From the NCBI GenBank assembly GCA_964434145.1, contig CAYSUG010000001.1, positions 22,933 through 86,932 of the forward strand: a DNA stretch of 64,000 nucleotides, read 5' to 3'. The notes under the pieces are model-generated. The model made no database searches. It saw nothing but the letters and a program-made list of their open reading frames with translations, and had not been told where the DNA came from. Each line of letters begins with the position of its first letter. Positions within the stretch are counted from its first letter, which is position 1. The stretch comes from an uncultured Christensenella sp. (GTDB lineage Bacteria > Bacillota > Clostridia > Christensenellales > UBA1242). Shown here piece after piece: positions 1 to 64,000 of this stretch. The position numbers were made by a program, and so were the translations under genes.

Positions 1-328
1 ATTGTGCATATCTTACAATATCAAAATGGTCTTCTTTTGTAAAAGTGTATTCCTCTTCAGATTCTTTAGGGTCGCATTTCATCATAACTTTTTGAAAATT
101 GTCATTTTCTGAAAAATTTTTCCAATATTCCATAATAAAACTGGCTTCATTAATGGCTTTGTCTCTTTTAAACTGGAAAAACAATGCAATTGCTCCAATA
201 ACTGCTGTTGCTACTGTTATAACTTCAAGCACTCTATTCCCTATATATTCATCAAAAAGTAATGTTAAAAACAAACTACCAATAAGTAAACAAATGGAAA
301 GAGTGGTTAAAACTTTATTTTTTTTCAT
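1..328 (-). CDS. hypothetical membrane-anchored protein, N-terminal part (gene runs off the left edge)
   Basis: Own minus-strand reading: ATG at 328-326 follows an AAAGGAA RBS. It translates MKKNKVLTTLSICLLIGSLFLTLLFDEYIGNRVLEVITVATAVIGAIALFFQFKRDK..., with two hydrophobic helices, and stays open to position 1. That is why it is absent from the ORF track. It replaces the antisense 99..335 ORF. Confidence 0.5.
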   Translation of the reverse strand, partial: MKKNKVLTTLSICLLIGSLFLTLLFDEYIGNRVLEVITVATAVIGAIALFFQFKRDKAINEASFIMEYWKNFSENDNFQKVMMKCDPKESEEEYTFTKEDHFDIVRYAQ

Positions 329-505
329 AGTATAATTTCCTTTTTACTTCTCACTTAGTATAGGTTAACAAAATATAATCAATTTTAAAAGCAATAAATA
401 CTATTTTAATGCACTATATTTTTTATACTAACATTATATCACCTTTAAATCTATTCTACAAATAAAAAAGGCAACTATAATTTATAGCCACCTTAACATC
501 TGTTA

Positions 506-1456
506 TTATTCAATCTCTGCTTGTTGCGGTTCTTTGACTGCTTTTAAATGTTGGATTTGTTCATATGATATTTGCATATCTACGTTATTATCTTTAAATA
601 TTTTAGAAATATCGTTATCTGCTAGAAGCTGTTCTCTAATATCTGCATACTTATGGTCGTAATAATTATCATAATGAGGTTCGTCATGACAGACATAACT
701 TATACTCCTATGTGGAGATATTGTTCGTGTAAAATATGTAATCAATTCTCCAATACTTGTATGCTCATAAGCCTTTACAACTAATTCTTTATTATCAATA
801 ATTTGCTCTGGTGACAAACCTTTTAATGCACCAAAACCACAACCTTCAATAGCAGCATCTACCAAAGTAACATAATCTACTCTTGTATTTGGTAAATTAT
901 TTAATATTTCTAAACCAAACGTCTGGACTTGCTGAACAAATTTTTCTGTCGAAATAGCATTAATTACTTCTTTTTTATCAGTTCCTTTAGATATACTATA
1001 GCCAGGAAAAACTTTGTCTAATACTGATACAATGTTCTTTTCTGGGAAAGTACTTATAAATTTTTCTACAAACTCAGGATTTTTAAATTCAGATTTTAAT
1101 TTACCATACTCAAAATAATCAAAAATATACTTATCAACTGAATCTTTCAATTTTAGATATTCTAACAAAAAATCTGTGTCCTTTTTTTTCTCATCATTAG
1201 GCACAAACATCTTGGTCAGCTCTGGATTTGCTCTATACAACGACATCATGTAACTATTGTCCGCCAATTGTTCTTCTGTTAAACGCAATATATACAGTCT
1301 GTCTGCATTATTATCATCTGATACAAAATTTATAATTGCGGAATTAACCTCTTCTGGCGAAGCATCTGGATTAACTCCTAGCGCCTTATAAAATCTATTT
1401 TTATCTTTTAATTTCGACTTTTTATCAAAAAAATTTTTTATAAAACTCATAACCAT
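506..1456 (-). CDS. hypothetical protein (no recognisable domain)
   Basis: 316-aa ORF with AAAGGA RBS. The N-terminus FYKALGVNPDASPEEV resembles J-domain helix I, but there is no HPD motif. Confidence 0.6.
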   Translation of the reverse strand: MVMSFIKNFFDKKSKLKDKNRFYKALGVNPDASPEEVNSAIINFVSDDNNADRLYILRLTEEQLADNSYMMSLYRANPELTKMFVPNDEKKKDTDFLLEYLKLKDSVDKYIFDYFEYGKLKSEFKNPEFVEKFISTFPEKNIVSVLDKVFPGYSISKGTDKKEVINAISTEKFVQQVQTFGLEILNNLPNTRVDYVTLVDAAIEGCGFGALKGLSPEQIIDNKELVVKAYEHTSIGELITYFTRTISPHRSISYVCHDEPHYDNYYDHKYADIREQLLADNDISKIFKDNNVDMQISYEQIQHLKAVKEPQQAEIE

Positions 1457-1651
1457 AATATCCTTTAAAGTTTTTAAAATAATACGCCAATATTATATAT
1501 CAGAATTTTAAAATGTCAAGACCTATTTTTAGTGACTTATTTCAGAATGATGAACTACAAAAAAATTGTGTATTGCATTATTATTTGTTTTATGATAACA
1601 TACTTATTAATACGAGATGCTAAAATACTATCATAATATGGAGAAATATAA

Positions 1652-2227
1652 ATGAATAATTTTGAAATAAGTATAAGAGACCTAATTGACTTTGAAGATG
1701 GTAAACATTTCAATGAGGATAAAATAAGAGCTGGAAAATATAAATTTATAAGAGATTTAGAAGACCAAAGTTTAGACATCCCAGTACATCTTACAGATGT
1801 TTATAATATAGCAGAAACAATCCACTTTCATTATTTCGATAGAGAATTATATGATAACGACAATTTTTGTGTTGGACTAACAAGTTTTGGTCGCCAACAA
1901 AACTGCACCCAAATAGACCCTTTTCTCTATGAAAAAGATATAGAATGGATACAATTCTTATTTTCTAGATATGGGGAAAAGTACGCTATAGCAAGTAGAC
2001 CATTAATCGAAGCTAAAATGAAACAAGCAAAAAACTACTTAAATCATATTAATTCTACTTTTGATACTTGTCACGAATACGACGAAAATGCATATAACTA
2101 CATATTTAGTAAGCAATATTATGAAAAAGAAATAAATAAATGCAACCATAAAATATCTATTTACTCTGAAATTTTATCAAGTATAGCCCAATCTTCAAAT
2201 CAAGAAGATGAAATGACAACTGTTTAG
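1652..2227 (+). CDS. hypothetical protein
   Basis: 191-aa ORF with a GGAGA RBS 7 nt upstream, followed by a hairpin terminator. No family recognised. Confidence 0.6.
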   Translation: MNNFEISIRDLIDFEDGKHFNEDKIRAGKYKFIRDLEDQSLDIPVHLTDVYNIAETIHFHYFDRELYDNDNFCVGLTSFGRQQNCTQIDPFLYEKDIEWIQFLFSRYGEKYAIASRPLIEAKMKQAKNYLNHINSTFDTCHEYDENAYNYIFSKQYYEKEINKCNHKISIYSEILSSIAQSSNQEDEMTTV

Positions 2228-2229
2228 TT

Positions 2230-2260
2230 AAAATCACCACTATATTGGTGATTTTTTATT
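2230..2260 (+). terminator. Rho-independent terminator
   Basis: AAATCACCA-n6-TGGTGATTT hairpin followed by a T-run. Confidence 0.7.
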
Positions 2261-2370
2261 TTAGAAAATTTTCATAGAGTTTATTGTTAATAAAAAAGCA
2301 GATAGCATATTGACAATTTGACAACCCATATTGTATAATCATGTTACAATTATATAGGAGTACCCATAGT

Positions 2371-3138
2371 ATGAACATCGTTAAAGCATTAGAGTCATTA
2401 GGAAAAAAAGTTAATAAATACAACACTTTAAGTAAGGAATATGCAGATTTAGAAGATAAGCATAGCAGCGAAGTAAAGAGAGTTAAAGTGATGTATAGTG
2501 CAAAAAAACGTGGAGAACTTGTTAGACACTTACTAGCCATGAAAAATATTGCCACAGAAGAAAAAGCGGCAATAGACAATATTCCTGAAAACAGCATTAA
2601 TTATGCTGAATTAAGAGATGCATACCAAGATGAAAAGTATTTCAGAAAAAAATTATTAGAAAATTTCATAATTGACCACAATTTAATGTGTCAATTACTA
2701 GAAAAGGAAACCAACTTGGCATGGACATTTAAAGAGATATGTGGTCGTCATCCATCTGATCCAGTATATAGATATGCTTATGCACATGGAATTGTTTTAG
2801 TTAATGAAAAAAAGCCAGAGTTCTATGTAGAAGGTAAAATATATTACAATGAATATCTGAAAAAATCCGAAAATATAATCCCATGCTGTTTAGGCTTAAC
2901 ATATCCACAAAGTTTTAGTGACGAATGTCAAATAGAGGCAAATAATTATAACTGGCTAGACTTTTATCTTCATAGTGTAGGTTTAGTGCCAGAATATGAG
3001 AATGAAGAAGAAACCAAAAAAGCTTTGCCAAAATGTGGAATATTTGAAGATGTTATAAAAGATGCGATAGCAAAACATATTCAATCTTTCTCACCTAGTA
3101 GCTTATCAGAAAATGATATAGAAGAACCTCAGGCGTAA
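2371..3138 (+). CDS. hypothetical protein
   Basis: The ORF opens at 2341. The ATG at 2371 (MNIVKALESLG...) has an AGGAG RBS about 10 nt upstream. No family recognised. Confidence 0.6.
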   Translation: MNIVKALESLGKKVNKYNTLSKEYADLEDKHSSEVKRVKVMYSAKKRGELVRHLLAMKNIATEEKAAIDNIPENSINYAELRDAYQDEKYFRKKLLENFIIDHNLMCQLLEKETNLAWTFKEICGRHPSDPVYRYAYAHGIVLVNEKKPEFYVEGKIYYNEYLKKSENIIPCCLGLTYPQSFSDECQIEANNYNWLDFYLHSVGLVPEYENEEETKKALPKCGIFEDVIKDAIAKHIQSFSPSSLSENDIEEPQA

Positions 3139-3230
3139 TATAAATACATATTACCAAAAGAAACAATTCGCACTTTGGGAGCGATGTCTAATTGGAGCGT
3201 ATGCGACAAATATAATTTGGCGACAGCCAC

Positions 3231-3327
3231 TATGTAATTTACTGAATATTATGCATAACGACTATCATCGCATTACATATCAACCTATGGTGGAATTACA
3301 TAACAACTTCGTTGTATTACATATCAA
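3231..3327. repeat. iteron-like array: three direct 12-mers ATTACATA(T/A)CAA plus one inverted copy
   Basis: Direct copies at 3272-3283, 3295-3306 and 3316-3327 (spacing 23 and 21 nt). An inverted core TATGTAAT sits at 3231-3238. Short hairpins lie between the copies. Confidence 0.5.
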
Positions 3328-3344
3328 TTTGACAAGCAAATTGA

Positions 3345-3383
3345 ATAAAAAAATCTCAAGTTAAACAACTCGAGATTTTTTTT
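3345..3383 (+). terminator. Rho-independent terminator
   Basis: AAAAATCTCAAGTT / AACTCGAGATTTTT hairpin with one mismatch, then a T-run. Confidence 0.7.
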
Positions 3384-3438
3384 GGTGCACCGTATGAAAA
3401 TAAACTTGAACCAGATTTTACAGAAATTATATAATAAT

Positions 3439-3476
3439 TAAAAAAATATTAGGAAGAAATAAACTTCCTAATATTT
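3439..3476 (-). terminator. Rho-independent terminator of the LRR lipoprotein gene
   Basis: AATATTAGGAAG-n7-CTTCCTAATATT hairpin with a T-run on the minus strand. Confidence 0.7.
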
Positions 3477-3484
3477 AAACACTT

Positions 3485-4924
3485 TTATTCTTCTATAGGT
3501 TCAAATTTGATTGTAATAGTTCCATCTAATAATTTAGTGTTAGACTCGTCGATATCTATAGATTCCCACTCTTCTTGAGTTCCTTTAAAGATAATTTCGG
3601 TTAATGAGTGTAAATTGCTTAATGCAGCCATTCCTATACTTGTCACACTATTTGGAATTGTTATTTTTTCAAGGTTCTCACAACTAGAAAATGCACGTTC
3701 TCCAATACTTAATACTCCATTAGACAATATTATACTTTCTAAATCCTTACAACAACTAAAAGCATACTCTCCAATATAATCAATATCTATCGCGATTATA
3801 TCACTATTTTTGCACGCAAGAATTAAAGTTTTTGTTTCTTTCTCTACTATTACATTATAGCAGATATCGTTACCAAATACCCCTTTTCTACAATCGGTAT
3901 ATATAGCATTTAATTGAGAGACTTCTATACTCTCCAAATTATAGCAGTTTTCAAAAGCATTACTCTTAATATCTACTACACTACTAGGTATATATATACT
4001 TTTCAAGCTTACACAATCTCTAAAAGCTAGATTACCAATTATTTCTACACTATTAGGAATATATATATTTACCAAACTACTACAATCGCTAAAGGCTGAA
4101 TTCCCAATTTCCTTCACAGTATTTGGAATATTTATACTTTTTAAAGATGTACATTGATAAAAGGCTCGATACCCAATTTTATTTATACCATAATTTAATT
4201 TTACACTTTCTAATGCAGTACAGAATTGAAAAGCAGAATCATATATTTCGGTTACCCTTGTTGGTAACTCAACACAATCCAATGTCTTATTTGTTAGTTC
4301 TTTGAATATAGTTCCTTCCAACACATAATCATCTGTCCATTTTGCATACAAGCATATAGTCTTGTTATCTTGAATATCTTCTGAACAAACACCATTGAAT
4401 ACTTCAGTATACGTCTCATCAGTATACCAATCTACAAATGAGTAACCAGACTTGGTCGGAATTGCTAAATCTAGCATATTAGAATTATCTAAATATTTAA
4501 CATTTGTATTTTCAACTGGATTAACACCACCATCAAGGTGATAACATAGATTTACAGCAATTTTATTTTCCTGTTTTACAGCAGAAACCTCTATCAGATT
4601 CTTCCATTCATCACTATTGTCTTCTGTTTTATATCTCCACTGAATATGTGTATCTGTTGTTTGGAATTCTACCTCTCTTCCATCCACACTAGGATTACCT
4701 GGATCACCTTTATAACCATCTCCAAGCAAAGTTTTCAACTCGTTAATACTAATAACATTATTCCACTCATCGCTACCTTCTACTTGCCATTGGAAGTAGT
4801 TGTCGGCAAATCTAACATTAATATCATCCTCCTTATCACAACCAACTAGTCCAAAGGGCATTGCAAGTGCGCAAAGTCCCATTGCTGTACCTGCTAAAAA
4901 TTTTTTTAATCTTCCTTTTTTCAT
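3485..4924 (-). CDS. surface lipoprotein with BspA-type leucine-rich repeats and a Listeria-Bacteroides (Flg_new-like) repeat
   Basis: Signal peptide with lipobox LVGC. Repeated ~23-aa units (IPNSV..IG..AF..C.SL) are typical of LRR_5/BspA. The segment GYSFVDWYTDETYTEVF is typical of the Flg_new repeat. Confidence 0.75.
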   Translation of the reverse strand: MKKGRLKKFLAGTAMGLCALAMPFGLVGCDKEDDINVRFADNYFQWQVEGSDEWNNVISINELKTLLGDGYKGDPGNPSVDGREVEFQTTDTHIQWRYKTEDNSDEWKNLIEVSAVKQENKIAVNLCYHLDGGVNPVENTNVKYLDNSNMLDLAIPTKSGYSFVDWYTDETYTEVFNGVCSEDIQDNKTICLYAKWTDDYVLEGTIFKELTNKTLDCVELPTRVTEIYDSAFQFCTALESVKLNYGINKIGYRAFYQCTSLKSINIPNTVKEIGNSAFSDCSSLVNIYIPNSVEIIGNLAFRDCVSLKSIYIPSSVVDIKSNAFENCYNLESIEVSQLNAIYTDCRKGVFGNDICYNVIVEKETKTLILACKNSDIIAIDIDYIGEYAFSCCKDLESIILSNGVLSIGERAFSSCENLEKITIPNSVTSIGMAALSNLHSLTEIIFKGTQEEWESIDIDESNTKLLDGTITIKFEPIEE

Positions 4925-5018
4925 TATTTTCTCCTTTTTGTATAAATTTTATTTTATTATACATCATAAAGTGATGTATGTCAACTATTTTACATCAGTT
5001 TGTGGTATATAATAACAT

Positions 5019-5231
5019 ATGGATATTGCAAAAATTGTTGGAGATAATATTAAAACAGCAAGAAAAATAAAAGGACTAACTCAAAGCGAGGTAGCCAAAG
5101 TTTTTCGAATGACACAACAACAATATAGCAGATTTGAAAATGGTGTTTTTGAACTTAATTATCAGCAAATATGCGATATTTGCAAATTTTTAGATACAAC
5201 ACCAAATGAATTATTTAATTTTGATATATAA
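5019..5231 (+). CDS. XRE-family helix-turn-helix transcriptional regulator
   Basis: 70 aa. The segment IKTARKIKGLTQSEVAKVFRMTQQQYSRFENG is a canonical HTH_3 pattern. Confidence 0.8.
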   Translation: MDIAKIVGDNIKTARKIKGLTQSEVAKVFRMTQQQYSRFENGVFELNYQQICDICKFLDTTPNELFNFDI

Positions 5232-5349
5232 AATTAAATAAAATCCGATATATTACAAAAAATACTTTTAACTCTTCACTTTTAGTTTTTCACTTAAAAA
5301 ATAATCCAAACTTTTAGTGAAGATTGAAAAATAAAAGTTAAAAGTACAA

Positions 5350-5389
5350 ACAAAACAATCCCTATCTTACGATAAGGATTGTTTTTGTT
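5350..5389. terminator. bidirectional Rho-independent terminator
   Basis: ACAATCCCTATC-TTAC-GATAAGGATTGT hairpin flanked by an A-run and a T-run. On the minus strand it directly follows the tRNA-Leu 3'-end fragment. Confidence 0.7.
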
Positions 5390-5407
5390 TGGTGCGGATG
5401 AGAGGAC
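5390..5407 (-). repeat. 18-nt direct repeat of the tRNA-Leu 3' end (att-like fragment)
   Basis: TGGTGCGGATGAGAGGAC at 5390-5407 is identical to 5575-5592, the 3' end of the intact tRNA-Leu. Confidence 0.85.
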
Positions 5408-5540
5408 AGTGTCTATTGGACAATAGTCCAATACTTCGGGTGGCACGCAGTGACGGGGTCCCGAATACAAGTGAAAGGCTTTTGCGTATACGCAAAAAGA
5501 GTTCTTAGTAATAAGAACTCTTACTCATCTAGCCAAAACG
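5408..5540 (-). ncRNA. unclassified conserved multi-hairpin module, copy 1 (tRNA-linked)
   Basis: It shares the blocks TGCGTATACGCA (5483-5494) and GAATACAAGTGAAA (5463-5476) with copy 2 at 59.9 kb. The stems flanking these blocks differ in sequence between copies but keep their pairing. Strand and RNA status are inferred. Confidence 0.4.
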
Positions 5541-5566
5541 AAAAAAGCCTCGGCATTGCCGGGCTT
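5541..5566 (-). terminator. terminator directly after tRNA-Leu
   Basis: Minus-strand GCCCGGCAATGCCGAGGC hairpin followed by TTTTTT. Confidence 0.6.
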
Positions 5567-5574
5567 ACTGTCGT

Positions 5575-5657
5575 TGGTGCGGATGAGAGGACTTGAACCC
5601 CCACTCTTTCGAACTAGATCCTAAGTCTAGCGCGTCTGCCAATTTCGCCACATCCGC
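5575..5657 (-). tRNA. tRNA-Leu (anticodon TAG)
   Basis: Hand-folded: GCGGATG acceptor, long variable arm, anticodon loop CTTAGGA, GGTTCAAGTCC T-arm, encoded CCA. Confidence 0.9.
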
Positions 5658-5816: not shown

Positions 5817-5905
5817 ATATTCGGTCTATCCTGACAACAATGACATTATACTACAGCAAAACTGTATTGTCAATAGAACTCAATTACTTTTTCAAAAAAA
5901 TAGTG

Positions 5906-5998: not shown

Positions 5999-6075
5999 TG
6001 GTGTGCCAGAAGGGATTCGAACCCCTGACCCTCGCCTTAGAAGGGCGATGCTCTATCCAGCTGAGCTACTGGCAC
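5999..6075 (-). tRNA. tRNA-Arg (anticodon TCT)
   Basis: Hand-folded: GTGCCAG/CTGGCAC acceptor, anticodon loop CTTCTAA, encoded CCA. Confidence 0.9.
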
Positions 6076-6094
6076 AAAATAAATACTTTTTGAA

Positions 6095-6168
6095 TGGAGC
6101 GGGTGATGGGAATCGAACCCACGCAGCCAGCTTGGAAGGCTGGAGTACTACCATTGTACTACACCCGC
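6095..6168 (-). tRNA. tRNA-Gly (anticodon TCC)
   Basis: Hand-folded: GCGGGTG/CACCCGC acceptor, anticodon loop CTTCCAA, encoded CCA. Confidence 0.9.
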
Positions 6169-6308: not shown

Positions 6309-6779
6309 TTACAAACTAATATATTCGTGCTGTATCGTATCGCCATCAATTACGAGCTTAAGACAGACATCATTCTTTAGCGAGCCGGGGTTAAAATAAT
6401 GTACGCCATCCACAACCTCATGATATCTACTATGCGTGTGTCCAAATAACACAACATCTACCCCTATCATATTGGCATACTTCTGCAGTGACAGCATAGT
6501 CCTCTTTACCTCAAAGGTATTGCCATGAGTCACTAAGATATGCTTGCCAGCGACATTTATTACCTTTTCATAAGAAATACTGCTAAAAAAGTCGCAATTA
6601 CCCCTAACTGCGGTGACATTGGGTAAATTATCATACACGCCTAAATCGGTCAATCCATCGCCCAAATATACAAAGTGGTCGAAAGTAAAGTTATCAAAAA
6701 TTTTCTCAACATTATGTTTTGCTCCATGAGAATCGGATGCTACTATTATTGTGGCTTTATTACTCTTTGTTTGCATCAT
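6309..6779 (-). CDS. YfcE/MJ0936-family metallophosphoesterase (phosphodiesterase)
   Basis: Motifs DSHG, GDG, GNCD, THGN and GHTH appear in order. The start was moved to an internal Met (MMQTKSNKATIIV) to limit overlap with plsY. Confidence 0.75.
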   Translation of the reverse strand: MMQTKSNKATIIVASDSHGAKHNVEKIFDNFTFDHFVYLGDGLTDLGVYDNLPNVTAVRGNCDFFSSISYEKVINVAGKHILVTHGNTFEVKRTMLSLQKYANMIGVDVVLFGHTHSRYHEVVDGVHYFNPGSLKNDVCLKLVIDGDTIQHEYISL

Positions 6780-7695
6780 CGTTCTCTTTTGCTGCAATTC
6801 TTTCATTACGTTTGTCTATTCTTTCTTGCATATCTTCTATTATCTTATTAGACTCTGCCTTGATCTCTTGCATTCTTAGATTATAGTGTTGTTGTAATTT
6901 GATACGCTTTCTAGCCACCTTCTTAATAGATTTGGCTTGCTTAGACTTAATAGCCTGTTGTTTTTTCTCTAATTTTTCATCGTAATGTTCTTTTAATTCT
7001 TCTTCCTTTTCTTTCAAATCATCCAATTTTTCAAGTTTCTTATCTTCTACGCGTTCTAGGTCTTTCTTCACGCTCTCCTTGAAAGAGATTAAACGCTCTT
7101 CGTTGGCAAATAATCTAATAAAGTTAGTCCTATGTGCCACGACATCTATGACTACAGTGAACCACATCAGAATCATAGCAACAAAATTATATTGGATACC
7201 AGAAATAAATGTATGAATTATTGCAAAAATTATGATAAAAAACATACTAGCAAGGCTACCAATCTTAACCAAAAGGAAAAACACCAAGTCTACTAGCAAA
7301 ATCACCAAAGCCAGCAGCGGATTGGCAACTATGAACATACCTACGGTACAAGCTATTCCCTTGCCGCCACGAAAATCGTAGAAAACTGGATACATATGAC
7401 CAATAACAGCAGCAAAACCGCCCACAAATAGAGCAATTGTAGACATATATTCATCACCAGGAAATAACAAAAACCTACCAATAAGTGATGGAATCGCAGC
7501 TTTCAATGCGTCAAATACCAGTGTAACGACACCCATCTTTAACCCATAATTTCGCAGCATATTCATTGTGCCAGGGTTGCCACTACCTTCCTTGGTTATA
7601 TCCTTTTTCTTTTTTGCTGTAATCAATCTAGAAATACTAATATTGCCTAAGAAATATCCAATGATTACAAGTGCCGTCAATTTAATTATTTCCAT
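6760..7695 (-). CDS. plsY: glycerol-3-phosphate acyltransferase PlsY with a ~105-aa K/E-rich C-terminal extension
   Basis: N-terminal ~205 aa are polytopic with the SGNPG(T)MN motif and an HRTNFIRL end, typical of PlsY. A coiled-coil-like tail follows. Confidence 0.8.
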   Translation of the reverse strand: MEIIKLTALVIIGYFLGNISISRLITAKKKKDITKEGSGNPGTMNMLRNYGLKMGVVTLVFDALKAAIPSLIGRFLLFPGDEYMSTIALFVGGFAAVIGHMYPVFYDFRGGKGIACTVGMFIVANPLLALVILLVDLVFFLLVKIGSLASMFFIIIFAIIHTFISGIQYNFVAMILMWFTVVIDVVAHRTNFIRLFANEERLISFKESVKKDLERVEDKKLEKLDDLKEKEEELKEHYDEKLEKKQQAIKSKQAKSIKKVARKRIKLQQHYNLRMQEIKAESNKIIEDMQERIDKRNERIAAKENDDANKE

Positions 7696-9013
7696 CTTTC
7701 TCTGCCTTACTCTTAATTACTAATTTGATAGGTGTTCCACTATAATCTACGCTCTTTCTAATACAGTTCTCTAGATATCTAACATAAGAGAAATGCATCA
7801 ATTTGGCATCATTACAGAACACGATAAATGTAGGCGGTGCGACCTCTGCCTGGGTGATATAGTATATCTTGCACCTTCTTCCACTCCTAGCAGGAGGCTC
7901 ATTGACCAGTATTGCCGACTGTAATATTTCATTAAGAACACTAGTACCAATCCTATTATGGGCATTGTAATATACCTTCTCTACCATTTCCATTACTTTA
8001 TTTAATCTCTGCCCAGTCAGTGTAGAGGTGTATAGAGAAACATAATAATCCATAAATTTCAGATCTTCATCCAGCTTCTTATTGAACTCATTCATGGTCT
8101 GAGTGTCTTTCTCTATCAAGTCCCATTTATTCATAAGTATAATGCTAGGCTTGCCCTCTTCATGCACTATTCCTGCAATACGAACATCTTGCTCGGACAA
8201 CCCTTCGCTAGCGTCTACCACAATTATAACTACATCTGCACGCTTAATAGCCTCAAATGACCTAAGAATGCTATATAATTCTACGCTCTCTGGCTCAATT
8301 GCCCTCTTCCTTCTAATACCAGCAGTATCAATAAGAACAAAATCCTTGTTGTTATATCTGAATGGAGTGTCTATTGCATCTCTGGTGGTTCCAGCAACAT
8401 CGCTAACCATTACCCTATTCTCACCAACTAACTTATTAAGAAGGCTACTCTTGCCAGCATTTGGCTTGCCAACAATAGCTATCTTAATCTTCTCCTTGTC
8501 CTCGTCCACACTGACTTTGTGCTTGAATTTAGACACAATACTATCCAGAAGATCACCAATACCCATGCCTTGTACGCTAGATATGCCAATAGGCTCACCA
8601 ATGCCAAGGTTATAAAATTCGTACAATTTCTGTTCATCATAATTATCTAATTTATTAACTGCTAGCACGACTGGCACGTTATATTTTCTAAGGAAATTAA
8701 CAGCATCATAATCTGCCGGAACTAAACCTTCCTTGCCATCCACAACCATGACAACCACATCTGCCAGATCTACTGCAATGGCTGCTTGCTTAGTAATATT
8801 CTGCTGGAACTCAGACTTGTTAAGAACATCCAGACCACCAGTATCTACCAAAGAAAAAGCATAGTCACACCACGTGGCATCACCATATATTCTATCTCTT
8901 GTTACCCCTGGCAAATCCTCAACAATACTGATTCTCTTGCCACAGATTCTATTAAAAAGTGTACTCTTGCCTACATTAGGTCTACCTACTATTGCTACTA
9001 ATGGCTTTTCCAT
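7682..9013 (-). CDS. der: ribosome-associated GTPase Der (EngA)
   Basis: Two tandem G domains (GRPNVGKST and GKPNAGKSS; DTGG and DTAG; NKLD and NKWD) plus a KH-like C-terminus. Start assigned at MEKPLVAIVG. Confidence 0.9.
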   Translation of the reverse strand: MEKPLVAIVGRPNVGKSTLFNRICGKRISIVEDLPGVTRDRIYGDATWCDYAFSLVDTGGLDVLNKSEFQQNITKQAAIAVDLADVVVMVVDGKEGLVPADYDAVNFLRKYNVPVVLAVNKLDNYDEQKLYEFYNLGIGEPIGISSVQGMGIGDLLDSIVSKFKHKVSVDEDKEKIKIAIVGKPNAGKSSLLNKLVGENRVMVSDVAGTTRDAIDTPFRYNNKDFVLIDTAGIRRKRAIEPESVELYSILRSFEAIKRADVVIIVVDASEGLSEQDVRIAGIVHEEGKPSIILMNKWDLIEKDTQTMNEFNKKLDEDLKFMDYYVSLYTSTLTGQRLNKVMEMVEKVYYNAHNRIGTSVLNEILQSAILVNEPPARSGRRCKIYYITQAEVAPPTFIVFCNDAKLMHFSYVRYLENCIRKSVDYSGTPIKLVIKSKAEKDGNN

Positions 9014-58584: not shown

Positions 58585-59295
58585 ATGATCGGATTTGTTA
58601 TTGCTATGGAAAAAGAATGCAATGCCTTCTTAAATAAACTAAAAACAACTAAAGAATATGACTTCGCTGGTAAAAAATTCGTTAAGAGCGAGTTAGGTAG
58701 TAGCGAAATAATTGTAGGAATTGCAGGCATAGGCAAAGTTAATTCTGCAATGACAACCCAATTAATGATAGACAAATTTGCCCCAGAACTAATAATAAAT
58801 TTTGGCTTCGCTGGAGGCAAAGAAGGAAGTGGGTTAAAAGCTGGAGACATTGTGTTACTGGACAAAGTCTGTCAATACGATTTTGATTTAAGCGAAGTAG
58901 ATGATGTAAATATTGGATATATGCAAGACTATGACACCACATACTACAACACAGATTACTCGCTTTATAACGGAAATGCTTTTAAAATACGCACCGGTGC
59001 CACTGGCGACAGATTCACCAGCCAGAAATATTTTCTAGATATTATTCGGCAACTAAATGCACAAGTAGTAGATATGGAAGCTTGTGCAATTGCACAAGTA
59101 GTAGATATGGAAGCTTGTGCAATTGCACAAGTATGTCAAGCAAATGACATACCTGTTATAAGTATTAAATTAATCTCTGATGTAGATGGAATGGATGTAA
59201 ATATCTTTGAACAATACAAAGGCAACAGCAATGCAATAAACGATAAATTTGTACTCGCAATAACAGACCTAATGGACAACATAATAAACAATTAA
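58585..59295 (+). CDS. mtnN: 5'-methylthioadenosine/S-adenosylhomocysteine nucleosidase carrying an in-frame 33-bp tandem duplication
   Basis: Motifs GIGKVNSA, FGFAGG, GDRF and VDMEACAIAQV are present. The last motif is duplicated. Confidence 0.85.
   Translation: MIGFVIAMEKECNAFLNKLKTTKEYDFAGKKFVKSELGSSEIIVGIAGIGKVNSAMTTQLMIDKFAPELIINFGFAGGKEGSGLKAGDIVLLDKVCQYDFDLSEVDDVNIGYMQDYDTTYYNTDYSLYNGNAFKIRTGATGDRFTSQKYFLDIIRQLNAQVVDMEACAIAQVVDMEACAIAQVCQANDIPVISIKLISDVDGMDVNIFEQYKGNSNAINDKFVLAITDLMDNIINN
59065..59130 (+). repeat. perfect 33-bp tandem duplication inside mtnN
   Basis: GTAGTAGATATGGAAGCTTGTGCAATTGCACAA occurs at 59065-59097 and again at 59098-59130. Confidence 0.95.
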
Positions 59296-59789: not shown

Positions 59790-59826
59790 AATAAAAAACT
59801 CAGTCAAACTATGTGTTCAACTGAGG
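59790..59826 (-). terminator. Rho-independent terminator closing the module copy 2 unit
   Basis: CTCAGT-n15-ACTGAG hairpin followed by TTTTTT on the minus strand. Confidence 0.6.
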
Positions 59827-59863
59827 ACCATTTTGCAGAAATGACAGAAAAAAATACAAACAA

Positions 59864-59975
59864 ACAGATGTGAGGCAATTTTCTGCACGGCAAGTTTACT
59901 TGCGGGAGTGCAGAATACAAGTGAAACTCCCCTGCGTATACGCAACGACAGCATGGAATGCTGTCTGTCATCTGT
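59864..59975 (-). ncRNA. unclassified conserved multi-hairpin module, copy 2 (tRNA-linked)
   Basis: Contains TGCGTATACGCA (59933-59944) and GAATACAAGTGAAA (59913-59926), identical to copy 1. Hairpins at 59947-59965 and 59881-59915 differ in sequence from copy 1 but occupy the same positions. Confidence 0.4.
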
Positions 59976-59980
59976 ACCAC

Positions 59981-60008
59981 AAAAAAATAAACTCTGCGAA
60001 CGCAGAGC
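59981..60008 (-). terminator. terminator directly after the tRNA/tmRNA 3'-end fragment
   Basis: CTCTGC-GTTC-GCAGAG hairpin followed by TTTATTTTTTT on the minus strand. Confidence 0.7.
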
Positions 60009-60018
60009 TTATTGGATG

Positions 60019-60040
60019 TGGTGGAGATGACGGGATTTTA
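60019..60040 (-). repeat. orphan 3'-end fragment of a tRNA or tmRNA (att-like junction)
   Basis: The minus strand reads TAAAATCCCGTCATCTCCACCA: half a T-loop, the 3' acceptor strand, A73 and CCA. The upstream DNA has no matching 5' half. Confidence 0.6.
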
Positions 60041-60187
60041 ATATTAGATTATTTAACGCATAAAACACAATATATAGTGGTCTTTAGTTTGCTATTATAC
60101 CAAATATTGTTATTTTATTTTCTATTTTTTTCTAATATTAAATTTTTGTGACCACTTATGTGACCATTTTTTTTAGAATACAACAGG

Positions 60188-60724
60188 TTATTTTTTGTAT
60201 TCTTTACATTTCTTCTCCAAAAGTTTAAAGTCCACAACACAATCTAAATATTTACTATGTTCCGATACTTTATATTTTCCTATCTTTTGATTATAAATAA
60301 TATTTGCTTTTCTTACTATTTCCTTTCTATTTTTAGTAATAAAATCTAATTCTTTTATCACAAGAGTTTTGTAATTTAAATCTTTTTCATTGTTTGGATT
60401 TACTTTAGTTAATGCAATATCATTTATAGGTATCATATTACCCAAAAGTATTTTTCCCTTCATTTCATCTATATTCTTATCATTCTTTACTACTATTCTT
60501 GTTAAAAATATTGGGTCCTTTCGAATTGAGCCATCAGCATTAAAGTCCTTTTGCTTAGGACTAGATAATGGAGCAAAAAATTTACAATCATTTACTTGTA
60601 TTACTGCACCAATATACTTTCTAGCATGTTTTCTTTTTCCAATTTTGTTATCACTTACATGAGAATCAAATTTTCTCAAATATTGAATATAGTCATCATC
60701 AACATTATATAAATATATTTTCAT
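60188..60724 (-). CDS. type III toxin-antitoxin system toxin, ToxN/AbiQ-family endoribonuclease
   Basis: 178 aa from MKIYLYNVDDDYIQYLRKFDSHV. It matches my recollection of AbiQ/ToxN: F..V...YI.YL..FD..V, YIG.V......FFAPLSSPK, and a C-terminal C.VDF..LEKK. Confidence 0.8.
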   Translation of the reverse strand: MKIYLYNVDDDYIQYLRKFDSHVSDNKIGKRKHARKYIGAVIQVNDCKFFAPLSSPKQKDFNADGSIRKDPIFLTRIVVKNDKNIDEMKGKILLGNMIPINDIALTKVNPNNEKDLNYKTLVIKELDFITKNRKEIVRKANIIYNQKIGKYKVSEHSKYLDCVVDFKLLEKKCKEYKK

Positions 60725-60740
60725 AAAATTCTTCCTTTGA

Positions 60741-60776
60741 ATAAAAATGAGCAAGGCGACTTTTGCCCTGCTCATT
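60741..60776 (-). terminator. terminator between antitoxin repeats and toxin gene
   Basis: AATGAGCAGGGC-AAAAGT-CGCCTTGCTCATT hairpin followed by TTTTAT on the minus strand. Confidence 0.75.
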
Positions 60777-60780
60777 ACTT

Positions 60781-60875
60781 CCTTCTGAGGAGAGGAATTC
60801 CACCTTTTACAGTTTCCCACTAAGGTAGGGTTCTCCAATCATACAGTTTCCCACTAAGGTAGGGTTCTCCGCCAA
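60781..60875 (-). ncRNA. ToxI/antiQ-like antitoxin RNA: 34-nt tandem repeats (2 perfect cores plus a degenerate partial unit)
   Basis: TACAGTTTCCCACTAAGGTAGGGTTCTCC occurs at 60808-60836 and 60842-60870, a 34-nt period. A degenerate partial unit lies at 60781-60807. The position relative to promoter, terminator and toxin matches type III TA loci. Confidence 0.75.
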
Positions 60876-61015: not shown

Positions 61016-64000
61016 TTAATACCCACTCATCTCAAACAACTTTTCTTTCTGACTTTTTGTTAGTTTTAGTCTATTAATATAAGACTTAACCTGTGTTTCG
61101 CCATACTTGTTTGTGTAACCAAGATACCCCATAATCATATACTTCTGTACTGCTGTAAGACCTAGACTATTGATGTATGATTGTATCTTTGCTTTTCTTG
61201 ATCCTGATATAGCTACACCTTTTTTATCTGTATCTGCTGTGTATATCTGTGCCTGAGATATAGCCATAGCCAATTGCTCAATTGGAATAGCCTCAGCAAA
61301 TAGAATTGTCTTGCTCTCCAAATCTTCTCCCAGCATATCCTCAATAGCAAGATTGTAGTAATAATTATAGATAAAAGTCATAGCCTTCGCTTTTGCTTCA
61401 TCATCAATCTTAGCAAAAGCTTTCAAGTTTACCATCTTCTTTACAGATTCGTTGGCTTGAGAATATATCTTTGTGAATTGTTTATGTTGTTTATCTGTTA
61501 AGGTATATTCCACCCCTTCATAAGTAATAGATTTATTTACTACTCTAGGTAGCACATCATAACCCTGCTCAATCAAATCTCTAGTCACTTCCATGACTTT
61601 ATCATCTTTGATTTTTCCTGTCCTACTATCAAACATAATATTTATTATTCTGTCAGCATATTCTTCATCTCCATTAGCAAGTGCTTTTTCTACTTTATCC
61701 AAATATGTTTGAGTACTCTTTGTCTTAAATAATGCTTCGTATTCTTCTTTTGTTGCAGGAGATATTTTTCCTATAATACCTTTTGTGTAACTCTCTAAAT
61801 TTTGTAAAGGTATACCAAATAGTTTGCTGGCATTTAGTATAGATTTTCTAGCAGAAGCTCTTAATTTAGTATCATCTTGATATCCACCATTAGCAAAAGT
61901 GTCGATTGACTCAACTGTATCTTTAACAATATTAAAAGTATTACTTAATGAAGTGTAAGCCATATTTGTTGGCTCATAACCAAGCATTAAGTTTGCTAAA
62001 TCGCCACCAAATGGAAGTAAGCCAACCAGATTAGCCATTGCTTCATTCCTAGCAACTTCGCTCCACTCCTCATCATCATCTTTACCTTTTAGCCATTTGA
62101 AAGCCATTGCAATCGCTAGTAACATTACCTGATTAAGAATAAATGCACTCTCAGTTTTTGCTAATCCTTTTTTAGAAGATGGTAATTCTTTTTGTGCATA
62201 TTGTGCTAATTCTAAATTGTCACACTTGCTCACTTTTTTTAATATATGATGCTTTCTTATTGCACTGCATTTTCTTCCTGCTAATTGTATACCATCTCCC
62301 CCAAACATTCTAAGAAATTTTATAAATTCATTATCGCTTCGCATCCACTCACTTCGACCTAATGCATCACTTGTCTGTTGAGTTGTAAATACAACCTCTG
62401 TCAATCTCTTACCAGCTTCAACTTTGTTTGCATCTGTGCCAAATTCTAATCCTTTTGTCTCTGCAACCTCATATTGAGCAGCAAACCATAATGATTGAAT
62501 AACATTACTATCCATCCAGGATATAGGTGTAGTTGTTAGTTTATTTAAGCCATCAGTAGCCTTTGCAATTACTTTGTGAGATCTTCCACCAATTTCTTTT
62601 CCAATTTGCCTTATATCTTGTACATCTACACTACTTCCAACTAAATTTCTCTCCCACATAAGAGGTGCATATTTAGCCATCTCTATTTTTTCTTTTTCTC
62701 CAAAGAAATGCTTCATTCCTTTAACAATGTACTTAGGATTGAATTCTGTTTGTGCAGATGCAAGAGATAATGTCTGAGTTAATAATACTTTAGGATTTAA
62801 GCCTAATGCAGAATTGGCTGTAGCCCATCTAATTCTACTCATTAGTTTACCAAAAAACTTATCTACTGATTTAAGGTTTTTAGTATTAAGTCCTTGTACA
62901 TCTAGCCACAATTTATCCATATATCCTTTAAATCCAGAATCTATTTTGCCTGCAGCACTATGCATATTTATACCAGAACCATTTTCTAACACAACTTTTC
63001 TATTCATTATCTTGTTGTATGCATTTAATGGCAACGCATATCCTACATATAAGGACATTTTTCTTATATGTTCTGCAAGAATATTATCTACACCATCAAT
63101 AACAATCATATTGCTAGAATTAGGTTTTACAGTTTTATTAAATCCAAAATTTAAAACAGATTGGTTTATATTACCTTTATCTGTTGTCTCCTGAAAAAGT
63201 TCATCGCTAGATACTTCTAATGGGAAGTAATCTCTATCTTCTACATTAGAGACTCCATACAAAGCAATATCTACTTCTTGTTTTGCTTTTCGAGAATTCT
63301 CATTAAAGAAAGTTTTAACTAAATCTATATATTCTCTATCTGCCTGTGTAAATTGTTTTTCAATATTGCTTAACATTTCTTCGGTAACTTTAATTTCTAC
63401 ACCTTTATCAAGTGCTTTTTTCATCTTTCCACGAGTTGAAAATTTATTATCCAACAACTTAACAATGCCCTCATCACCATCAACACCAAATATATGACTT
63501 CTACCCTGAGGTCTTAGTGATGTTAAGTATAGAGATAATGCTTGTCTTTTATGAAGTGTAATATCTTCATATCCATTATTAATAACCATTTGTTCTTGTA
63601 GAACATTGTTATAATTCTTATTTCTTTTATAGAAGTCATCAAATAACATATTGGCTTCCATGACAAACTTGGCTCTTTTAGAATCTCCATTAACCATATC
63701 TCTATATATTTGCATCATTACAGAGTTTTCTCTGTACAATCCCATTTCAGCCATTCTATCTTTAGGATTAATAAATATATGCTTAATTCCTTTAATAATA
63801 TAGTTAAAAAACCTAACAAATATATTTGAGTCCGGACTCTTTAAGAATGGTTCAGCCTCAAGAGTTTCCTTAACACCTTGTTCAGCGATTTTATCTATCT
63901 CAACCTTTTCGCCATTAAAGCTAACTAAATTATAATTTTGTAAAACATGCATAAAGTTCCTAAGAACATTAGAGATATCAAGAATTTCTTCCGTTGTAAA
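61016..64000 (-). CDS. very large phage/mobile-element protein (partial; open beyond the window edge)
   Basis: The 978-aa track ORF stays open upstream of its first Met as far as position 64000. Composition and C-terminal segments (e.g. SGSRKAKIQSYINSLGLTAVQKYMIMGYLGY) resemble large virion/polyvalent proteins. The family was not verified. Confidence 0.5.
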   Translation of the reverse strand, partial: FTTEEILDISNVLRNFMHVLQNYNLVSFNGEKVEIDKIAEQGVKETLEAEPFLKSPDSNIFVRFFNYIIKGIKHIFINPKDRMAEMGLYRENSVMMQIYRDMVNGDSKRAKFVMEANMLFDDFYKRNKNYNNVLQEQMVINNGYEDITLHKRQALSLYLTSLRPQGRSHIFGVDGDEGIVKLLDNKFSTRGKMKKALDKGVEIKVTEEMLSNIEKQFTQADREYIDLVKTFFNENSRKAKQEVDIALYGVSNVEDRDYFPLEVSSDELFQETTDKGNINQSVLNFGFNKTVKPNSSNMIVIDGVDNILAEHIRKMSLYVGYALPLNAYNKIMNRKVVLENGSGINMHSAAGKIDSGFKGYMDKLWLDVQGLNTKNLKSVDKFFGKLMSRIRWATANSALGLNPKVLLTQTLSLASAQTEFNPKYIVKGMKHFFGEKEKIEMAKYAPLMWERNLVGSSVDVQDIRQIGKEIGGRSHKVIAKATDGLNKLTTTPISWMDSNVIQSLWFAAQYEVAETKGLEFGTDANKVEAGKRLTEVVFTTQQTSDALGRSEWMRSDNEFIKFLRMFGGDGIQLAGRKCSAIRKHHILKKVSKCDNLELAQYAQKELPSSKKGLAKTESAFILNQVMLLAIAMAFKWLKGKDDDEEWSEVARNEAMANLVGLLPFGGDLANLMLGYEPTNMAYTSLSNTFNIVKDTVESIDTFANGGYQDDTKLRASARKSILNASKLFGIPLQNLESYTKGIIGKISPATKEEYEALFKTKSTQTYLDKVEKALANGDEEYADRIINIMFDSRTGKIKDDKVMEVTRDLIEQGYDVLPRVVNKSITYEGVEYTLTDKQHKQFTKIYSQANESVKKMVNLKAFAKIDDEAKAKAMTFIYNYYYNLAIEDMLGEDLESKTILFAEAIPIEQLAMAISQAQIYTADTDKKGVAISGSRKAKIQSYINSLGLTAVQKYMIMGYLGYTNKYGETQVKSYINRLKLTKSQKEKLFEMSGY

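Follow-up and report, generated by a model that had tools for sequence, protein, structure and literature searches.

Short gene-less units at tRNA-Leu 3' ends of uncultured Clostridia look like stripped-down mobile elements

The stretch of DNA analysed here, 64,000 nucleotides from an uncultured Christensenella sp. (the window), carries two copies of a gene-less unit inserted at a tRNA-Leu-type 3' end; with the copies found in relatives, the units measure 169–186 bp. They have entered three independent tRNA-Leu targets with duplication of the target sequence, both filled and empty sites exist, no genes are present, one copy stands in tandem with a genomic island, and the hairpin architecture is conserved. 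A pared-down mobile element using the integration enzyme of another element seems to describe the module better than a new RNA gene does. An earlier note, made from the letters of the window alone, had described the module and offered three readings (an arm of tRNA-targeting integrative elements, a small RNA derived from a tRNA 3' trailer, or a guide-like RNA), and its interpretation is partly supported.

In each unit a terminator of its own is followed by the tRNA 3' end as an inverted repeat, by three to four hairpins and by a direct repeat of that end of 19–22 nt; the whole consists of an interior of 147–166 bp plus one such repeat. One partial and four full copies make up the known set, and the constraints claimed below rest on few independent lineages. 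The full copies are window copies 1 and 2 (c1 and c2), a copy in L002, another Clostridiales MAG (c3), and a copy in the relative L009 (c4). The full units have lengths of 185, 186, 185 and 169 bp. Three of them thus fall within 185–186 bp, and this near-equality despite differing hairpin sizes suggests a constraint on length or phasing.

Both window copies lie on the minus strand, as do all features whose coordinates are given below, and each stands downstream of a tRNA 3' end and a terminator-like hairpin, exactly where the earlier note had placed them. The 32-nt pattern TGCGTATACGCA-N6-TTTCACTTGTATTC has exactly two matches in the window (5463–5494 and 59913–59944), while none of 100 shuffled sequences matched it even with three mismatches allowed (chance expectation 0).

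Copy 1 follows a functional tRNA-Leu(TAG) gene (5575–5657), the 3' end of which forms the left direct repeat (GTCCTCTCATCCGCACCAA, 5574–5592). Next come the terminator-like hairpin T1 with its T-run (5541–5566), which is near-identical in L013 and forms the tip of a folded hairpin, and the inverted repeat of the tRNA end (TTTTGGCTAGATGAG, 5524–5538), in which GATGAG pairs with CTCATC and which is 71% complementary to the right-repeat region over 21 nt. Hairpin H1 (5497–5522) has a perfect 11-bp stem. Sequence matching placed hairpin H2, the palindrome TGCGTATACGCA, at 5483–5494 and the conserved block TTTCACTTGTATTC at 5463–5476. Hairpin H3 (5435–5465) consists of an outer stem TTCGGG/CCCGAA and an inner stem GTCAC/GTGCC with a conserved T-C mismatch, and the fold places H4 (TATTGGAC/GTCCAATA) with a junction at 5408–5434. 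Compared with copy 1, the orthologue in L009 shows compensatory changes in the inner stem of H3 (GTCAG/CTGCC) and in H4 (TATTGAAC/GTTCAATA). The right direct repeat (5389–5407) is followed by terminator T2 (5352–5385), the original tRNA-Leu terminator, which has its homologue at an empty site in L021.

Copy 2 begins at an orphan tRNA-Leu-like 3' fragment (TTAAAATCCCGTCATCTCCACCA(CA), 60017–60041), upstream of which the tRNA body is absent; neither ARAGORN nor Rfam found a tRNA at this left repeat, which agrees at 19 of 23 positions with the tRNA-Leu(CAG) 3' end of L002. T1 and its T-run (59982–60013) comprise a 12-pair stem (60013–59986) followed by TTTTTGTGGT. The inverted repeat TGTGGTACAGATGACAG (59965–59981) includes the heptamer AGATGAC and can fold with the left repeat, enclosing T1 (87% complementarity over 15 nt between 59967–59981 and 60017–60031). 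H1 (GACAGCAT-TCC-ATGCTGTC, 59947–59965) differs between copies and is unique in the window. It is followed by the palindrome TGCGTATACGCA (H2, 59933–59944), which is the same in c1, c2 and c3 and replaced by another small hairpin in L009, by the conserved block TTTCACTTGTATTC (59913–59926), whose final TTC is the base of H3, and by the two-part hairpin H3 itself (59881–59915) with outer stem TTCTGCAC/GTGCAGAA, an asymmetric internal loop and inner stem GCAAG/CTTGC. The 3' tail (59848–59880) leads to a degenerate right direct repeat (CTGTCATTTCTGCAAAA, 59831–59847), which gives the unit length of 186 bp and lies as far from H3 as does the perfect right repeat in L002. A terminator scan of the sequence located the flanking T2 at 59799–59825.

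In the two copies, hairpins of unrelated sequence occupy equivalent positions, as had been claimed; this was borne out for H1 (AAGAGTTCTTA/TAAGAACTCTT in copy 1 vs GACAGCAT/ATGCTGTC in copy 2) and for the outer stem of H3 (TTCGGG/CCCGAA vs TTCTGCAC/GTGCAGAA). The claimed invariance of the single-stranded blocks and the palindrome stood for c1, c2 and c3, where they are identical, but not for L009, where the palindrome reads AATGCtgtaGCATT and the 14-mer TGACTTGAACTGTATTC. The tRNA-end-like segments said to close the copies turned out to be two different things. That of copy 1 repeats 19 nt of the tRNA-Leu 3' end, CCA included, without a single change (5389–5407, equal to 5574–5592), whereas that of copy 2, TGCCTCACATCTG at 59865–59877 within the tail, is an internal segment that is able to pair with the inverted repeat and is also present in the third copy, as TGTCTCACTTCG; the degenerate direct repeat of copy 2 lies 18 nt beyond it.

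Comparison with relatives alters this view. The third copy lies at a tRNA-Leu(CAG), and L009 carries an orthologous copy at the same tRNA-Leu(TAG) as copy 1. In the more distant relative L021 the empty site is precise: the tRNA-Leu(TAG) runs straight into the terminator and flanking DNA that in the window stand behind the right repeat, the homology covering T2 of copy 1 and about 100 nt beyond it. The direct repeats are exact copies of the local tRNA-Leu 3' end (19 nt in window copy 1, 21 nt in L002 and 22 nt in L009), and they start in the T-loop and end 1–3 nt beyond CCA. Att cores at tRNA genes usually look like this, and phage A2 has a 19-bp core at tRNA-Leu. The right-repeat junction leads into different DNA in the window and in L009, though the tRNA spacers are 85–90% identical, as expected of an active att junction. 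Three targets are distinguished, namely tRNA-Leu(TAG), the tRNA-Leu-like orphan end and the tRNA-Leu(CAG) of the other MAG, and the genes neighbouring copy 2 and the L002 copy are unrelated, downstream genes included, so that the insertions are independent. For copy 2, homologues of a nucleosidase and of a NUDIX protein (61% identity) were tried as anchors of synteny and led to non-syntenic loci only. Since the window, L009 and L013 carry orthologous copies, the insertion at the tRNA-Leu(TAG) site is old and stably inherited, and recent mobility is therefore unproven.

The inverted repeat resembles the tRNA 3' end more closely than shuffled sequences do (P = 0.0004 for c2, 0.003 for c3 and 0.05 for c4), and its CCA-complementary end is its least conserved portion. 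The heptamer that had been described as complementary to the adjacent tRNA end is indeed so, being the best-kept part of this longer inverted repeat. Its supposed covariation with its own tRNA end comes down to a single G/C position, and the tRNA-Leu ends are too alike to distinguish cognate from non-cognate ones. A distance of 35–50 nt separates the inverted copy of the tRNA end from the direct one, and pairing of the two can produce a stem that has an unpaired bubble in its middle, the variable hairpin as its cap and CTCATC/GATGAG or GTCATC/GATGAC at its base.

A covariance-model search for homologues, which the earlier note had proposed, was carried out with a model built from c1–c3 (R1). 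This model scored its own three training copies at 86–116 bits (E 1e-16 to 1e-23) and recovered the independent c4 in L009 at 36 bits (E 1.6e-5), which implies that the interior is homologous between copies; no further copies were found in the window and about 300 kb of related loci. In the covariance-model alignment of the four copies, nine of 24 pairs change on both sides (five of seven in H1), a number reached by one of 500 shuffles, and pairing falls from 86% to 32–52% when the register is slid; the compensatory stem changes that had been claimed are thus confirmed. Minimum-free-energy folds of all four full copies show one architecture, in which the inverted repeat and the right repeat form a closing stem around H1, H2, the single-stranded block and H3 and, in two copies, H4.

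The genomic surroundings were also analysed. Copy 2 is in tandem with a low-GC ToxIN island carrying ToxN/AbiQ, which lies between a tRNA outside the window and the orphan repeat of copy 2, the tRNA-proximal end of the island being beyond the window. Low-GC islands border both window copies, and the 54 kb between them is core genome of normal GC with gyrA, gyrB, engA, plsY and further genes of this kind; on these grounds the idea that the two copies are the ends of one 54-kb element was rejected. There is no recombinase within 5 kb of any copy, no RNA-guided enzyme gene or transposase nearby, no conserved ORF in the 147–166-bp interior, and no downstream gene or partner protein gene common to the copies. 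Pattern scans of phages, plasmids and viral contigs gave chance matches only; the scan of the genome collection gave one true match (L002) and one chance match (L001), and that of the metagenome collection two chance matches, while missing the JGI contigs L022–L025, which do carry the pattern. No larger homologous element was encountered in the phage, plasmid, viral, genome and metagenome scans, which were exact-pattern scans and not exhaustive. The module is rare and occurs in a few uncultured Clostridia.

The explanation that we prefer, and to which we give about an even chance of being right, is that of a miniature non-autonomous integrative element, attP-sized and CIME-like, that is moved in trans by a tRNA-Leu-specific integrase. 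Such an element would enter the 3' end of a tRNA-Leu by site-specific recombination, duplicating the tRNA end as attL and attR. Having no recombinase of its own, it would be integrated by the tyrosine integrase of a larger island or prophage with the same tRNA-Leu attachment site, and the same foreign integrase may also excise it or carry it along in tandem. The element would then amount to a bare attachment site (attP). The terminator that it brings along stands immediately behind the rebuilt tRNA end and would keep the tRNA operon properly terminated, and the inverted tRNA-end copy and the hairpins would form the DNA-level architecture of the recombination site, perhaps as core-like binding sites or as bendable or extrudable palindromes. 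What we infer is the kind of recombinase, that it works in trans and that the hairpins act at the DNA level; a DNA-level role is favoured by the absence of G-T pairs and of a promoter, by the terminator-flanked position and by the length of 185–186 bp in three copies. What counts against this explanation is that no cognate integrase, parent element or excised circle was encountered, that some 185 bp of double-stranded circle would be very little DNA for a lambda-type intasome, and that structure is kept while sequence changes, which a simple attP model does not predict. Arm-type sites are bound as double-stranded DNA, for which conservation of sequence is expected.

Among known systems, two come close to a miniature integrative element. 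Cis-mobilizable elements (CIMEs; Pavlovic et al. [quoted passage not shown] The module retains both att repeats (exact in c1, c3 and c4, degenerate on the right in c2) and has neither kind of gene in its interior, and copy 2, in tandem with the gene-carrying ToxN/AbiQ island at the same att site, matches the accretion scheme of CIMEs (PMC5704250). However, the CIMEs described so far are decayed, kilobase-sized and of arbitrary content, whereas the module is of 169–186 bp with a conserved architecture at independent loci, contains an inverted att-core copy and hairpins evolving by compensatory change, and has no known parent ICE or IME. The closest of the three earlier readings, that of an arm of a tRNA-targeting integrative element, agrees with the direct repeats, the filled and empty sites and the tandem with the island, but the module, a self-contained unit of 169–186 bp, is complete in itself and no part of something larger. 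In size the module resembles the attP sites of heterobivalent tyrosine integrases aimed at tRNA 3' ends (minimal attP of about 240 bp in lambda and 215 bp in mv4, a phage integrating at tRNA-Ser), of which phage A2 is a further example; these sites share about 17–22 nt with the tRNA 3' end and have an element-supplied terminator after the tRNA part. Known attP arms have sequence-conserved direct-repeat arm sites next to an int gene, whereas the module lacks int, shows little conservation of arm sequence and is dominated by palindromes. A literature search for an already described equivalent found only general CIME and attP papers.

The conservation of structure but not of sequence would be accounted for if the module were a mobile hairpin element whose recombination site works single-stranded or extruded, a variant that we consider improbable. 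Together, the copy of the tRNA end, its inverted counterpart and the "terminator" hairpin would then form a forked stem with a central bubble, in imitation of the double-stranded 3' end of the tRNA-Leu gene, and a tyrosine recombinase would join this fold to the chromosomal tRNA gene, as happens with integron attC or CTX-phi attP(+). Stems that are perfect on both strands and the stable, seemingly irreversible inheritance would also be explained. The likeness to attC and attP(+) is a resemblance only: an inverted target-like copy near a direct copy, a foldable stem with a bubble and a variable hairpin, and structure kept where sequence is not. The module differs from them in having no R or L boxes, dif-like XerC/D sites, integron integrase or filamentous-phage genes, and in its target, a tRNA gene; at the base of the stem neither R''/R' boxes (RYYYAAC/GTTRRRY) nor XerC/D arms can be read.

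The readings that place the function in RNA are weak. We judge it unlikely that the module is a gene for a small structured RNA, or an antisense or guide-like RNA, which a mobile element brought in a single time and which is now retained for its function; the 5' segment would pair with the tRNA-Leu 3' end or with the downstream copy of this end and close the multi-hairpin fold. The common fold of all four full copies (z-scores of −4.1 and −2.8) and the significant compensatory changes would fit such an RNA, as would the two blocks that are identical in three copies while the intervening 6 nt differ, a pattern that indicates selection and not gene conversion. Also in favour, the single-stranded block of L009 that is equivalent to TTTCACTTGTATTC contains GACTTGAAC, complementary over 9 nt to the T-loop region GTTCAAGTC; at the same time, the loss of the conserved blocks in an orthologue speaks against an RNA. 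So do the nearly equal folding of both strands, the loops without GNRA or UNCG motifs, the lack of a common downstream or partner gene, and the stem pairs, all 116 of which are Watson-Crick, with two mismatches and not one G-T (G-U) pair, compared with seven G-T among 78 stem positions in the flanking terminators (74 of them standard or G-T; Fisher p = 0.001). T1 starts about 5–11 nt past CCA and the module follows its T-run and is situated between two terminators. No sigma-70-like promoter was found inside the four modules on either strand, which is weak evidence; the sole promoter-like match touching a module, a weak 9/12 match, spans the 3' end of the L009 module and its right repeat and is not conserved in copy 1. 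The position past the terminator, the missing promoter and the stems without G-U argue against a tRNA 3'-trailer RNA. The 3'ETS-leuZ-type sRNAs of E. coli come from tRNA trailers between the tRNA and the terminator and are released by processing; like them, the module comes after a tRNA-Leu gene where the tRNA operon ends, but it lies beyond T1 and is an insertion missing from a relative. As to a guide-like RNA, the module does have complementarity to the tRNA end, but an inverted att-core repeat explains this equally well, and no gene for an RNA-guided enzyme accompanies it. In agreement with the earlier note, the module matches no Rfam family: only tRNAs scored at or above the gathering threshold of Rfam 15, and even at E <= 10 nothing covered the module consistently in three copies. 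Several other candidates were rejected, namely a retron (no reverse transcriptase after the module), a T-box (the module stands behind a terminator, and neither an aminoacyl-tRNA synthetase gene nor a transporter gene lies downstream), a retroelement primer-binding site (within the inverted repeat, conservation is lowest at the CCA-complementary end), a tRNA-like or tmRNA-like fold (ARAGORN was negative and the CCA would be paired) and a group II intron fragment (Rfam was negative).

Improbable, too, is that the copies are inert scars, that is, remnants of one family of larger tRNA-Leu islands reduced to the DNA beside attL and attR, their similarity reflecting common descent only and their hairpins being relic terminators. 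Decay of ICEs and IMEs to CIMEs has been described as common (PMC5704250), and the low-GC islands beside both window copies, the degenerate right repeat of copy 2 and the conserved blocks lost in L009 would fit it. However, independent random deletions would not leave three unrelated loci with identically ordered parts and with lengths of 185, 186 and 185 bp, nor with blocks that stay identical next to a differing spacer; moreover, the stems remain perfect through compensatory change, and in three lineages the right repeats still match the tRNA end exactly. We find it very improbable that the module is a MITE or IS-derived element moved by a transposase, be it a hairpin element of the IS200/IS605 type or an IS110-type element with a guide. 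It is small, non-coding and hairpin-rich, and its internal segment complementary to the target recalls the guide sequences at IS200/IS605 ends and the IS110 bridge RNAs. But MITEs have terminal inverted repeats and a short target-site duplication, whereas here the borders match at 5–7 of 25 positions, which is chance level, and the flanking repeat is 19–22 nt of one specific target; PATEs derived from IS200/IS605 have similar subterminal hairpins and no flanking repeat, whereas the hairpins of one unit are mutually unrelated and the direct repeat is long; and an IS110 bridge or seek RNA would come with a DEDD/Tnp recombinase gene and without a long duplication, whereas no such gene lies within 5 kb and the duplication is 19–22 nt. 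The missing transposase and the low number of copies (two in 64 kb, none elsewhere in about 300 kb of related DNA) point in the same direction. A casposon was also rejected, because terminal inverted repeats are absent.

If the module is a miniature integrative element moved in trans, it would be about the smallest imaginable integrative element, an att site with its own terminator that parasitises the integrases of tRNA-Leu islands, and CIME-like elements could be streamlined propagating entities and not random wreckage. In gut or rumen Clostridia, a class of cryptic insertions would then add att sites, or landing pads, beside tRNA genes. Textbook attP models do not provide for the inverted core copy, the compensatory hairpins or the fixed 185-bp length, which could mean structure-dependent recombination. 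Should the site indeed work as a fold, it would be the first such site aimed at a tRNA gene, and the minimal element would be a folded att site only; should the module be an RNA instead, it would represent a new structured RNA class tied to tRNA-Leu.

The minus-strand Gly-Arg-His-Gln-Lys-Leu tRNA cluster ends with tRNA-Leu(TAG) (5657-5575), which in copy 1 is followed by T1 (a terminator-like hairpin and its T-run), TTTTGGCTAGATGAG, H1 (a hairpin of 11 perfect base pairs), H2 (the palindrome TGCGTATACGCA), a variable stretch of six bases, the conserved block TTTCACTTGTATTC, the two-part hairpin H3 and one more hairpin, H4. The same parts stand in the same order in copy 2 (60041-59864, minus strand), where an orphan fragment of a tRNA 3' end and a terminator precede them. 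Within the window the composite 32-nt pattern has exactly two occurrences, against none in 100 shuffles; thus the module, which the earlier note had reported as present twice, is real and not a product of chance. The hairpin sequences of both copies are unique within the window. A tRNA-end-like segment does close copy 1, but "related", as it had been called, is too weak a word: it is an exact 19-nt duplicate of the tRNA-Leu 3' end including CCA (5389-5407 = 5574-5592), after which comes a second terminator, T2. A perfect consensus promoter (TTGACA-17-TATAAT, 12/12; 5845-5873, minus) lies between tRNA-His and tRNA-Gln and is kept in the related locus L009, which makes an internal promoter of the cluster probable.

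The sample comprises four full copies and a partial one, drawn from two or three lineages. A single scan of 185,579 species genomes for the exact pattern added the third copy, which lies in a Clostridiales MAG (L002, SVIC01000004.1); there, tRNA-Leu(CAG) is followed by a terminator, the inverted repeat GGTGC-GATGAC, H1, H2, the 14-mer as in the window, H3, a tail, an exact 21-nt copy of the tRNA end and a weak terminator. This copy is flanked by genes with no relation to those beside copy 2, and its sequence was found base for base in four JGI metagenome samples. The collection scans require exact patterns and are incomplete: four JGI contigs (L022-L025) contain the exact pattern yet were missed by the metagenome-contig scan, so that absence from that scan is not evidence of absence.

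The copy 1 locus in relatives was reached via homologues of the YfcE-like gene adjoining the tRNA cluster. L009/L010 (72% amino-acid identity) share the six-tRNA cluster and carry an orthologous copy with 22-nt exact repeats, while L013 (76%) has T1 as in copy 1 and GATGAGTAA, then a different hairpin up to the contig end. In L021 (47%) tRNA-Leu(TAG) abuts a T2-like terminator, and the next ~100 nt align with the window after the right repeat. Read from this alignment, L021 is a precise empty site, which makes T1, the module and one repeat together an insertion, bounded by the tRNA-end duplication. The terminator and GTTTGTA flank after tRNA-Leu in L021 recur ~260 bp downstream (6067-6115 versus 6330-6375, with 6588-6631 noted too; a (GCAA)n microsatellite closes the contig); this ~45-nt direct repeat around a non-coding segment may mark one more small insertion, unlike the module in kind.

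Measured repeat to repeat, the unit spans 185, 186 and 185 bp in copies 1 and 2 and the L002 copy (loci: window 5408-5592, window 59831-60036 and L002 2737-2942) despite unequal hairpin lengths, and 169 bp in the orthologous L009 copy. This near-constant length suggests a length or helical-phasing constraint. A covariance model built from three copies recovered the L009 copy (36 bits, E 1.6e-5) and, in about 300 kb of sequence, nothing beyond it and the training copies. In the model alignment 86% of cells pair, compared with 70% in shuffles; in nine pairs both partners have changed, a count that 1 of 500 shuffles attained, and pairing falls to 32-52% when the register is slid. Between the orthologues, copy 1 and L009, H4 changes from GGAC/GTCC to GAAC/GTTC and the uppermost pair in the inner stem of H3 from C-G to G-C. 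Conservation of the hairpins through compensatory stem changes, as claimed earlier, is therefore supported, though from just four sequences. Divergence between the window and L009 is uneven: the tRNA spacers are 85-90% identical and the 3' half of the module (H3, H4, right repeat) about 90%, whereas T1, the inverted repeat, H1 and H2 are unalignable and the DNA past the right repeat is wholly different.

The leading segment AGATGAG/AGATGAC had been described as complementary to the adjacent tRNA end and covarying with it. The complementarity is real and extends further, since the segment belongs to a longer stretch that repeats the tRNA 3' end in inverted form. In copy 2 this inverted repeat matches the orphan fragment over 15 nt at 87% and a tRNA-Leu(CAG)-type end at 15 of 16 positions. 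Compared with shuffles, the complementarity has P = 0.0004 in copy 2, 0.003 in L002, 0.05 in L009, 0.013 in the partial copy and 0.24 in copy 1. The covariation comes down to one G/C position and carries little weight because tRNA-Leu ends are too alike; cognate and non-cognate ends score alike. In all five copies the left repeat, T1 and the inverted repeat fold as a single long hairpin that opens into a bubble at its center; in the other pairing, the right repeat is the partner of the inverted repeat and the whole module is enclosed. The second block of L009 carries GACTTGAAC instead, the complement of the T-loop region in the neighboring tRNA, so that GATGAGA, H1-H2 and GACTTGAAC make up a nearly complete inverted att core, split by two hairpins.

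The 54 kb between the window copies hold core genes (gyrA, gyrB, engA, plsY, a murG-like gene and others; 36-42% GC), which rules out the two copies as ends of one element. Both border low-GC DNA. The block after T2 of copy 1 (1-5350, 28-29% GC) encodes a BspA-type LRR/Listeria-Bacteroides-repeat protein (3485-4924) and a small HTH protein (5019-5231), besides several ORFs that match no family, and may be a further island at this tRNA-Leu site, its far end beyond the window. At copy 2 the tRNA body is absent and a ToxIN island (60.04-64 kb, 30-32% GC) takes its place. Its type III toxin-antitoxin locus (60188-60870, minus) encodes a ToxN/AbiQ-family protein (Pfam E 3e-36, PADLOC AbiQ E 2e-39) preceded by two tandem ~34-nt repeats beginning GGAGAACCCTACCTTAGTGGGAAACTGTA (about 60803-60870), likely the antitoxin RNA; the listed TTG start at 60838 falls inside these repeats, and the true start probably lies downstream of it. 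The neighboring 978-aa ORF (61016-63952, minus) has no Pfam, NCBIfam or PADLOC match and matches only three PHROG families, all of giant proteins without an assigned function (best E 3e-35, against a 3513-position profile). A perfect 12-nt inverted repeat, TTTAATATTAGA/TCTAATATTAAA (60037-60048 and 60131-60142, 82 nt between arms), abuts the orphan fragment on the island side and may be end architecture of this island. On the other side of copy 2, a MTA/SAH-nucleosidase-like gene (58585-59295, plus) contains a perfect 33-nt tandem repeat (59058-59133, 2.3 copies), in frame at 11 codons per unit, and its protein is ~12 aa longer than homologues (236 versus 222-225 aa). In a distant relative (L005) a reverse-transcriptase gene (6902-8119, RVT_1, 405 aa) comes immediately after the nucleosidase homologue and adjoins a gene for a 1559-aa helicase-like protein with DUF4011; it has no relation to the module.

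Being gene-less and comparable in length to a minimal attP (215-240 bp), the unit is read, with moderate confidence, as a miniature non-autonomous integrative element, CIME-like but streamlined, that would need a tRNA-Leu-specific integrase in trans. Like CIMEs, it retains att repeats and lacks integration and transfer genes. It would enter the tRNA 3' end by site-specific integration, its own terminator then standing right after the rebuilt end. The repeats are exact, 19-22 nt long, start in the T-loop and end just past CCA; filled and empty sites occur in relatives, and the DNA adjoining the right repeat varies from genome to genome, which also fits integration there. The layout of copy 2 is that expected if an incoming island had integrated into a tRNA end already bearing the mini element, an arrangement described as tandem accretion (PMC5704250).

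Other readings were weighed against this one. That the module is an sRNA or guide RNA is unlikely: its stems contain, besides 116 Watson-Crick pairs, two mismatches (each time the same conserved T-C) and not one G-T pair, versus seven G-T pairs in 78 stem positions of eight flanking terminators (74 of 78 being standard or G-T pairs; Fisher p = 0.001, or 0.004 with unique stems only). The module sits between two terminators, no sigma-70-like site lies inside any module, and the sole promoter match touching one, a weak 9/12, spans the 3' end/right repeat of the L009 module and is not kept in copy 1. The absence of G-T pairs, the terminators without a promoter and the unit length argue, none of them decisively, for constraint on DNA rather than RNA. 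An inert scar is a rather improbable reading: in copies 1 and 2 and L002 two blocks are identical around six bases differing at five positions, a pattern that indicates selection on the blocks, not gene conversion. By analogy with attC or CTX-phi attP(+), the unit might be a folded single-stranded att site, the most novel of the readings, which we consider quite doubtful. Movement by a transposase, as a MITE or IS derivative, is highly improbable; within 5 kb of each copy, neither a recombinase nor a transposase domain turned up.

Compared with known systems, the unit did not qualify as a MITE, an IS200/IS605 derivative, an attC/CTX-type site, a 3'ETS sRNA or an IS110 bridge RNA, and every Rfam family fails, in keeping with the earlier note, which had recognised none. 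A literature search returned no account of a conserved, attP-sized, gene-less tRNA-Leu insertion bearing an inverted core copy.
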